Part shown: positions 59,616-60,668 of the stretch, piece after piece
Layout: the number at the start of each line of letters is the position of its first letter
Position numbering within the stretch: position 1 is the stretch's first letter
Virus record (IMG/VR): IMGVR_UViG_3300044557_000292
Location: 32,001-96,000 of that record
Length of the DNA: 64,000 bases
Source of the DNA: a virus
Taxonomy: Duplodnaviria; Heunggongvirae; Uroviricota; Caudoviricetes
Strand: one strand, 5' to 3'
Made by a program: the position numbers and the translations under genes
The notes under the pieces: generated by a model
Seen by the model: the letters and a program-made list of their open reading frames with translations, nothing else
The model's database searches: none
Told to the model about the DNA's origin: nothing

Positions 59616-60668
59616 TCATGCTTCATGATCATCTGAATCATCGTCATCAGCAAACGTGAAGTCATTTAAGTCAATAACGTCGTCATCTGTACTGTCACCG
59701 TCGCCAGCACTGGAATCGCCACTCGTCTCCGGTTCTGCGGGCGACTCATCAACGCCGATCTTCGCCGCGTCGTCAGGCTCATCATTGGCGGCCTCCTGGA
59801 GAGCGTCCATACTGTTATCCCACGCATCCTCCGGTCGATCATTACCTCCAGTCTCGCCCCTCAACTCGGGTCGACCAATATGATAAGACTCGTCTTCCTC
59901 ACGGGTCACTCCCTCCTGGTACCCCTGTGCTTGATGATTGCTGCCATCACTTGCTATGGTCTCAGGTGCCTTCAAGCCGGGCATGTCCGTACTGATGCCC
60001 TGCTCGGCCATCTTACGCTCGTGCTCAGCGTTGATCCGCTCCTTCTCAGCCCGGGTGCGGGCGATGTACTTACTGTTATCAACACCCTGCAGGTTATCAA
60101 GATTACCGCCGCCCGTGACCCCGTCAAGCCCGCGGTCGATGAACGCAGATGGACCCGTTGTCTTCGGAGTGCCGTCACGATTGAGCCCACGCCTGTCAAG
60201 CCATCCATCAATCCACTCCTGGGGCGCGAAGTACACCTGCAGACGCTGCTCATGCCCGTACGTGCTGATGACAGCACGACCCTTCGGGTTCCCGGGGGTC
60301 TTCACGGCAGATCCAGACCCGAGGGTCATCGCTGAGGCCGTCATGTTCATGTTCCCGCACGCAAGACGCATTCCAAGGTTCGCCTTCAGCTCTCCCGGGA
60401 GAAGTTTCGCATCCGGCCTCTGAGTCGCAATAGAAAGGTGAACTCCAGCCGCTCGACCAAGACGCGCTATAGATCCAATCATAGATTGCGCTTCACCCTT
60501 CAAGGCCTGCTGGGCTTTAGCGTCATCACTGTTATGGGTGGGAACACCGTTCTTACCAATCAGGAACTCATGGTTCGGTGAGTCTACCCTAATGCAGTAT
60601 ATGGCTTCATCCGGAACATCTACTCTCTTAATGTCGGCAAGAGTAAACAATTCTTCATCATTCTTCAT
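59616..60668 (-). CDS. C-intein (46 aa) fused to the C-terminal half of an FtsK/SpoIIIE-type ATPase, with acidic tail
   Basis: blocks F/G IYCIRVDSPNHEFLIGKNGVPTHN|S, then SIARLGRAAGVHLSIATQRPD...PKGRA; in-frame TAA 9 codons upstream of the ATG. Confidence 0.88.
   Translation of the reverse strand: MKNDEELFTLADIKRVDVPDEAIYCIRVDSPNHEFLIGKNGVPTHNSDDAKAQQALKGEAQSMIGSIARLGRAAGVHLSIATQRPDAKLLPGELKANLGMRLACGNMNMTASAMTLGSGSAVKTPGNPKGRAVISTYGHEQRLQVYFAPQEWIDGWLDRRGLNRDGTPKTTGPSAFIDRGLDGVTGGGNLDNLQGVDNSKYIARTRAEKERINAEHERKMAEQGISTDMPGLKAPETIASDGSNHQAQGYQEGVTREEDESYHIGRPELRGETGGNDRPEDAWDNSMDALQEAANDEPDDAAKIGVDESPAEPETSGDSSAGDGDSTDDDVIDLNDFTFADDDDSDDHEA

Follow-up and report, generated by a model that had tools for sequence, protein, structure and literature searches.

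Four distant genes of a giant element are predicted to encode one FtsK/TcpA-like ATPase joined by three split class-3 inteins

The DNA analysed here is a stretch of 64,000 nucleotides (the window; G000:C1:32001-96000) from the virus record IMGVR_UViG_3300044557_000292 (G000). On the minus strand it contains an ORF of 350 amino acids (piece D, window 59616-60668), which opens with a 46-residue C-intein (C-intein 3, 60531-60668) and continues with the C-terminal 304 residues of an FtsK-like ATPase, including an acidic tail with 36% Asp/Glu. The C-intein carries 5 Lys/Arg versus 9 Asp/Glu, is split at the usual (endonuclease) site and closes with the block G residues Thr44-His45-Asn46. The C-extein (59619-60530) starts at Ser+1, which is residue 47 of the ORF, and residues 53-159 match FtsK/SpoIIIE with an E-value of 4e-21 (PHROGs). 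The motifs ARLGRAAG (60444-60467, residue 68) and ATQRPD (60411-60428, residue 81) are present on the same strand and belong to the part of the FtsK domain that follows Walker B. Nine codons upstream of the ATG we find an in-frame TAA (60693-60695), which is present in both alleles of the locus. The initial annotation had already described the C-intein ending in Thr-His-Asn before Ser+1, the post-Walker-B FtsK part, the upstream stop and the absence of the N-half from the window, and all of this was borne out; indeed, no ORF with Walker A/B or an N-intein is found in the last 3.3 kb of the window. It had missed Cys25, which is the class-3 block F nucleophile. When we searched the 420-kb record with a profile made from 36 contiguous inteins of relatives, three frames were significant, namely pieces B, C, and D (E 7e-14 for piece D), while the next best frame had E 6, so that the match of C-intein 3 is not due to chance.

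The initial annotation had suggested that an FtsK N-half with an N-intein should be sought elsewhere on the contig. This N-intein is found on G000, 8.2 kb away and behind Walker A/B, so piece D is not a broken pseudogene without an N-intein partner, an outcome that had also been considered. What is missing from the window are, however, three genes elsewhere on the same contig and not a single N-half. The idea that the ATPase is assembled from distant loci by a split intein hence stands with regard to the distant partners, but there are four genes and three inteins instead of two halves. We found pieces B and C with tblastn and by reading the genome in six frames; their two C-intein stretches lie 9 and 13 kb away. 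Intein-free homologues led to piece A, which had escaped a regular-expression six-frame scan for short N-inteins that yielded ~100 chance matches.

Piece C (G000:C1:100859-101818, minus strand) contains C-intein 2 (87 aa), a 109-aa extein and N-intein 3 (123 aa, Ala1), followed by a stop. Its extein begins with Thr-Gly-Gly-Gly-Lys-Ser, in which Thr is the +1 residue within Walker A, and runs through Walker B; N-intein 3 is the partner of C-intein 3 on piece D. Piece B (G000:C1:104776-105639, minus strand) consists of C-intein 1 (201 aa), Cys-Gly-Gly and N-intein 2 (83 aa, Pro1), so that its extein share is just these three residues of the Walker A region. Piece A (G000:C1:208552-209979, plus strand) has a membrane-anchored N-extein of ~430 aa and N-intein 1 (45 aa, Pro1, with an acidic tail); hydrophobic 19-residue windows start at residues 1-7 and 150-172, as judged by crude hydropathy only. 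Pieces C, B, and A lie about 8, 12, and 116 kb from piece D, with nrdD and other genes between pieces C and D, and piece A is located ~103 kb from piece B on the opposite strand. Walker A is spread over three genes, with piece A ending in Met-Ser-Leu-Ile, piece B adding Cys-Gly-Gly and piece C continuing from Thr. Read in the order A-B-C across the junctions, it matches the 14 intein-free proteins among 51 homologues. Walker A, Walker B, RAAG, and TQRP follow each other in the FtsK/SpoIIIE order across pieces A-D, and the exteins sum to ~846 residues. Judged by sequence, the four genes together encode one FtsK/TcpA-like membrane ATPase.

PF01580 is found on piece C with 38 bits (cut-off 24), and against the named NCBIfam families the ATPase pieces stay under the curated thresholds. 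No second FtsK copy was found on G000. A profile of piece C and its relatives retrieves FtsK (2ius), a "DNA translocase coupling protein" (6o1x), which we take to be TcpA, and intein-type chains from the PDB; the helicase entries 6rix and 6bs8 are presumably class-3 inteins. The inteins themselves match Pfam weakly, with Hom_end_hint below the cut-off, and give no score against NCBIfam. A contiguous intein 1 used as a single query against the PDB sequences returned nothing relevant, but an alignment-based search did find relatives. N-intein 1 was not picked up by the 36-intein profile because it is too short.

In the three inteins, position 1 lacks a nucleophile (Pro, Pro, and Ala for inteins 1, 2, and 3), and a Trp is found two residues after the block B His (His-Val-Trp, His-Leu-Trp, and His-Ser-Trp). 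In all three C-halves the fourth position of block F is Cys and the fifth of block G is Thr, and they end in His-Asn, followed by Cys, Thr, and Ser as +1 nucleophiles for inteins 1-3. In class 3 as defined by Tori et al. (PMC2807308, accessible portion), the N-terminal nucleophile is missing, block B position 12 is Trp, block F position 4 is Cys, and block G position 5 is Thr, and we assign all three inteins from their residues to this class with its Trp-Cys-Thr triplet. The split sites differ: intein 1 is cut near residue 15, intein 2 just before block B, for which the accessible literature offered no precedent, and intein 3 at the usual site. Complementary N- and C-halves are encoded on separate frames, each fused to its own extein. 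When the halves were aligned to contiguous inteins of relatives, five clearly matched the intein of their own site best, with z-scores of 16.2 (C1), 13.7 (N2), 34.4 (C2), 49.5 (N3), and 18.3 (C3). N-intein 1 ranks its own site first, albeit weakly (z 3.0, 5 of 9 residues identical); its putative identity is based on this 9-residue motif, on conservation and on a complex model. In pieces B and C the C-half stands before and the N-half after the extein. This is the layout that is used for engineered cyclisation. Because each of these two pieces carries a C-half in front and an N-half behind, cross-reaction must be rare.

We compared 51 longer homologues of the piece C extein and found each intein in several states. 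Six of them have intein 3 contiguous and intein 2 split (P0001-P0006), while 11 have intein 2 contiguous and inteins 1 and 3 split (P0007-P0017). A fourth split site inside Walker A together with a contiguous intein 3 is present in 19, one of which is truncated at its start; one homologue has intein 3 alone and 14 are intein-free. Intein 2 is contiguous in L021 too, and in L031 and P0186 a contiguous intein 1 is followed by Cys-Gly-Ser and a split intein 2. The locus L020 shows the same three split ends as G000, with pieces B and C in swapped order. Because the relatives have each intein contiguous, split, or absent, all six splice junctions are fixed. Close to the pieces of several relatives, short degenerate FtsK-like paralogues without a clear Walker A are found, at L020:3059-3916 and upstream of the match in L049, L050, L055, and L061.

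The search with the first 170 residues of piece D gave 415 proteins; among the best 120 of these 415, 119 are new and span ~50-99% identity. A stand-alone C-intein of at most 82 residues opens 114 of these 119. Among these 114 split forms, the block F Cys is found in 113 and the block G Thr in 111, while Asn and Ser/Thr+1 are present in all. This search admits proteins of 192-613 aa only and thus does not give a ratio of split to contiguous forms. For piece A, 14 of 15 homologues end in an N-intein of 19-90 aa that starts with Pro-Leu, 13 of them being acidic, and the fifteenth is contiguous. In an extein tree of 72 cores (from 134 candidates, after removal of duplicates and non-matches; 92 columns), G000 is placed in a supported clade of eight rows that mixes split, contiguous, and empty states. 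With 25 of 68 forks open, among them those inside this clade, we claim no order of events.

Upstream of piece D, six nucleotides before its ATG, we noticed the hexamer TATCTT (window 60675-60680, minus strand). TATCTT-N6-ATG precedes pieces B, C, and D alike. On G000, 25 of 378 TATCTT sites have an ATG at that spacing (6.6% versus a background of 2.4%), and the spacings 4 and 7 are also raised. A frame of at least 100 aa is opened by 19 of these 25, compared to 198 of 1600 random ATGs. The motif was chosen from pieces B, C, and D; without these three, 16 of 22 open such frames. These data fit a putative -10 box of a leaderless transcript. Leaderless -10 promoters are known from Actinobacteria.

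Based on this, we propose that the three split class-3 inteins splice the four products into one ATPase chain of the above length, a reading to which we assign a probability of about 80%. Pieces B, C, and D would be made from their own leaderless transcripts, while piece A would be made coupled to the signal peptidase gene. Each N-half would fold with its own C-half, guided by the different split sites and the charged tails; with three different cut positions, the majority of mismatched pairs would be left with a fold that has some part missing or present twice. The block F Cys would attack the N-terminal junction, the +1 Cys, Thr, or Ser would take the N-extein, and Asn cyclisation would then release the intein. 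The Walker A loop, to which pieces A, B, and C contribute, would be continuous only after splicing.

The element that carries these genes is circular and is represented by a single contig of 419,707 bases, filed as a virus record with direct terminal repeats; its ends overlap by 89 bases inside a CRISPR array. It encodes 50 tRNAs, in an array with a GIY-YIG endonuclease gene within it (L014:6483-19944), and a tmRNA away from this array (L012:7185-7540). The type I-E CRISPR array, with 26 repeat copies, sits at the ends of G000:C1, and the type I-E cas genes (L011:4887-13508) lie ~170 kb apart from it. Replication genes (DnaE, DnaB, DnaG, gyrase, RecA, ligase), Tad-like ATPases, cell-wall hydrolases, a TcpF/VirB4-like ATPase and a separate TraD-like coupling protein are also encoded. 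Genes were predicted with a crude caller (310 of at least 100 aa), and the scans covered genes of this size that lie within locus borders, which about nine cross. The element furthermore carries triosephosphate isomerase, aldolase, fumarase, and anaerobic as well as class Ib ribonucleotide reductases (L005; window 3170-4621), a type IA topoisomerase in two adjacent ORFs (L016:3251-4336 and 4358-5776) and an ORF with a Zeta-toxin domain (window 46146-47348). A short N-terminal module, Trp-Val...Arg-Ala-Gly...Gly-Tyr-Trp, recurs in eight ORFs that are not related otherwise, most of which cluster around the split gene (window 55061-56680 and 56746-57465; G000:C1:96011, 99814, 105746, 110593, 111262, and 268420); relatives have a different repeated Cys/His-rich leader near their ATPase pieces. 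G000 is probably a giant conjugative plasmid-like element, as far as its gene content tells; a divergent jumbo phage is the alternative reading.

A CrgA match (Pfam) hints at an actinobacterial host, given what we take to be the range of this family. We name no host, because in the species-genome collection (14 loci) the sole close match sits on a 3-kb contig, all else being distant FtsK. In PLSDB and INPHARED we found distant FtsK domains only, all below 60% identity, and a single-sequence search of viral contigs gave no matching locus. The public runs with the strongest match to G000 are bioreactor sludge metagenomes; runs with a small word share, including the sole RNA run (share 0.06), were left out of the expression and habitat evidence. 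The accessible main text of the Inocle paper (PMC12340149) mentions neither inteins nor FtsK.

The predicted spliced ATPase probably serves the giant, presumably conjugative element as a DNA pump. If splicing takes place, DNA transfer seems a somewhat likelier role than segregation, because piece A lies directly behind the N-half of the TcpF-like ATPase and a signal peptidase gene, the latter also preceding piece A in L031; the TraD-like protein speaks against transfer, and in four related records (G001-G004) the N-piece is not adjacent to the TcpF half. The same protein makes the identity of our ATPase as a coupling protein, which the initial annotation had put forward, uncertain. The strongest competing reading accepts splicing and assigns the product to segregation or replication of the replicon, or to genome handling of a divergent jumbo phage. 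The best profile matches, to generic FtsK/SpoIIIE, would agree with such a role, but Pfam gave no match to the FtsK gamma domain on piece D at E 0.1. In chromosomal FtsK, this C-terminal domain reads KOPS. The filing as a virus record with terminal repeats favours the phage variant, while no capsid, portal, or terminase match was obtained among the G000 proteins scanned (225 versus Pfam, 68 versus PHROGs). With the neighbourhood of piece A pointing to transfer and the separate TraD-like protein pointing away from it, we regard the segregation or phage reading as a serious contender that is nevertheless the less probable one.

Splicing itself could be questioned if the halves bind without splicing, or if only some splice, with the intein folds acting as docking domains of a non-covalent ATPase. 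We modelled the complex of pair 1, N-intein 1 and C-intein 1, and obtained a score of 0.83 compared to 0.35 for the best control. The mark of this model is reached by 116 of 157 solved and by 2 of 215 mismatched pairs. The runs agree in at least 90% of contacts, the partner pLDDT is 66-68, and the scissile bond as well as the His of block B and the Cys of block F are part of the modelled interface. Because split-gene halves can pass this test by likeness to solved intein folds, the predicted complex supports that pair 1, the most distant pair, belongs together and is no proof of binding. The model speaks to binding alone, as docking would require, but the catalytic residues are near-invariant in the listed split forms (Cys in 113 of 114, Asn and Ser/Thr+1 in all), and the contiguous versions of the same inteins must splice to give a working protein. 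At junction 3, the ATPase might tolerate a break, since this site falls within a variable loop behind Walker B, whereas a P-loop in three parts with a three-residue middle would be hard to restore without ligation. Possible precedents for docking are a fragmented ribonucleotide reductase assembled via interaction domains (PMC3045599, accessible part) and, on the element itself, the TcpF-like ATPase, which is also encoded in two distant genes, in which no intein was seen. Taken together, we consider docking improbable and splicing of all three junctions the better explanation.

Endonuclease genes accompany two of the breaks. Between pieces B and C, a gene for a 949-aa endonuclease-like protein with zinc-finger repeats is located on the plus strand (G000:C1:101930-104779); its stop codon and that of the converging piece B overlap in one CTAG palindrome (G000:C1:104776-104779). 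Directly upstream of piece D, a cassette with 34% GC (window 60696-62328) is present in one allele, while another allele has 24 other bases instead. Both cassette ORFs are encoded on the plus strand, opposite to piece D: a DUF7487/Cys-rich ORF of 179 aa (60863-61402), the putative DNA-binding part, and a DUF559/RAP-like endonuclease ORF of 231 aa (61392-62087), which we assume to have a Vsr-type fold. The cassette-less allele occurs in two runs, with depths of 9.7 and 70.5, which are comparable to the 16.1 and 58.9 of the cassette allele. This presence and absence in the same samples suggests recent or ongoing homing beside the C-intein gene. Since the upstream stop is kept in both alleles, the split is independent of the cassette today. 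Similar endonuclease genes flank the pieces in L031, L034, G001, G003, and G004; none was seen adjoining piece A.

A decaying pseudogene, shattered by endonuclease insertions and left with unused pieces, would leave similar traces at these breaks, including the polymorphic cassette, and the other coupling protein of the element could make the ATPase dispensable. All four frames are nevertheless intact, three of the pieces have the common start signal, and the split is kept in 114 of 119 listed piece D homologues and in 14 of 15 piece A homologues. Additionally, among 40 of the 183 substitutions, all four listed in piece C are synonymous, while one of the two listed in the piece B tail alters a residue. 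We hence hold decay to be very improbable and treat the four genes as parts of an ATPase that is probably functional and spliced. That the split is an artefact of assembly from a contiguous intein gene, such as the misassembled cis-intein mentioned in the initial annotation, is hardly credible even for a metagenome with strain variation at the locus, given that contigs of all four other runs covering the 14.6-kb region bridge the stop upstream of piece D and none joins C-intein 3 to N-intein 3 (one is a dust sample of another year and low depth, three may share a campaign with the source sample), and that more than 100 diverged homologues begin at the same place.

Four related records (G001-G004, 310-438 kb) show a further variation. 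In all four, an N-piece (L144-L147) that stops 14-20 residues after the Walker A Lys is separated by 80-118 kb from a C-piece (L140-L143) with a short C-end of 40-60 aa. A free-standing frame of 211-256 aa that resembles an intein middle (L149-L152) follows 0.9-8 kb after the N-piece in each of the four. This points to natural three-piece inteins in their ATPases; three-piece inteins are described as engineered only in the accessible part of a review (PMC11766414). In G000 a free-standing intein-middle gene gave 0 matches, and none is needed there. Shortly ahead of Walker A, by a few residues, the G001 N-piece (L144:1477-2907) has an additional contiguous intein of class 1 (Cys1); with four or more insertion points, this motif is thus a hot spot for inteins. 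The N-piece of these records does not adjoin the TcpF half, unlike piece A in G000. The TcpF/VirB4-like ATPase, whose halves in G000 (G000:C1:206357-207811, plus, and 223041-224264, minus; L003 and L010) show no intein, has its break at one and the same site (about positions 428 and 467 of the model) in each of the five records searched.

The arrangement probably originated by repeated invasion of intein genes by free-standing endonuclease genes, and later rearrangement would have scattered the pieces, so that the inteins could no longer be lost easily. The relatives show all states and the cassette is polymorphic within samples, so that the origin of split inteins becomes testable by comparison. 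A bolder interpretation is that we see the first natural four-chain protein, made via three split class-3 inteins that are orthogonal to one another, that the arrangement is maintained as a post-translational AND gate, and that three-piece inteins occur in the same family. None of our results points to a regulatory role, and we think this full version doubtful; if true, transfer would have to wait until four genes under separate control are expressed and three Cys-dependent splicing reactions can proceed. The three predicted trans-splicing steps, together with an extein of just three residues within the ATP-binding loop, would stretch how far a working gene can scatter. Three inteins that have to avoid cross-reaction within one cell, and that have three different split sites, form a candidate set for multi-segment protein ligation, with more than 100 homologues as variants to screen. 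Annotation pipelines see such pieces as hypothetical proteins or broken genes.

In the accessible parts of the literature, the natural split inteins described each connect two halves of a gene, a single one of them belonging to class 3. We found there, with subscription journals thinly covered, neither a natural protein built from four pieces by three split inteins nor a split intein in an FtsK-like host. What appears to be new is hence the predicted four-gene, three-intein class-3 architecture with its three-residue extein; the individual parts are of known kinds. The closest relative is AceL NrdHF, the first split form in class 3, none having been present among 1701 class-3 inteins in nr (Hoffmann et al., PMC7891396, as far as accessible). 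Like intein 3, it has a non-nucleophilic residue 1, the block F Cys, Ser+1, the usual split site, and an endonuclease gene nearby, with halves of 98/48 aa compared to 123/46 aa. AceL NrdHF is, however, one intein with a variant MCT triplet in a two-piece ribonucleotide reductase gene, whereas in G000 the WCT triplet is complete in all three inteins, two of which have unusual split sites, and the gene is in four pieces. The MP-Be DnaB-type class-3 inteins share Pro1/Ala1, the WCT positions, and the location in or near an ATPase P-loop with ours, but they are contiguous; the Cys+1 of intein 1 is noted for one class-3 intein only in the accessible portion of Tori et al. (PMC2807308). PolB16 OarG (15-aa N-half; PMC10189870) and AceL TerL (25-aa N-half; PMC11766414) resemble intein 1 in having a very short N-half and a near-complete C-half, but PolB16 OarG belongs to class 1 (Ser1), whereas intein 1 is assigned to class 3 and has its halves ~103 kb apart.

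Fractured genes (Dassa et al., PMC2677866, accessible part) likewise have a conserved enzyme that is interrupted by a split intein, with the break accompanied by a free-standing, in some cases Vsr-like, endonuclease gene. In that arrangement, the three frames adjoin each other on a single strand and the host protein consists of two pieces. In G000, the endonuclease genes occupy the opposite strand, further genes are interposed, piece A is ~103 kb off and inverted, and the FtsK-like ATPase is in four pieces. The G000 arrangement thus works like a fractured gene but falls outside this definition of adjacent frames on one strand. With FtsK/SpoIIIE and the pCW3-type TcpA (PDB 2ius, 6o1x) the ATPase shares the N-terminal membrane segments, Walker A/B, RAAG, and TQRP; it differs by the missing gamma-domain match, by its acidic tail, and by being encoded in pieces. 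Finally, engineered tandem trans-splicing of three segments (PMC12707363, accessible part) also uses orthogonal split inteins to turn several chains into one protein. That system is a laboratory construct with two inteins, whereas G000 is predicted to use three in nature.
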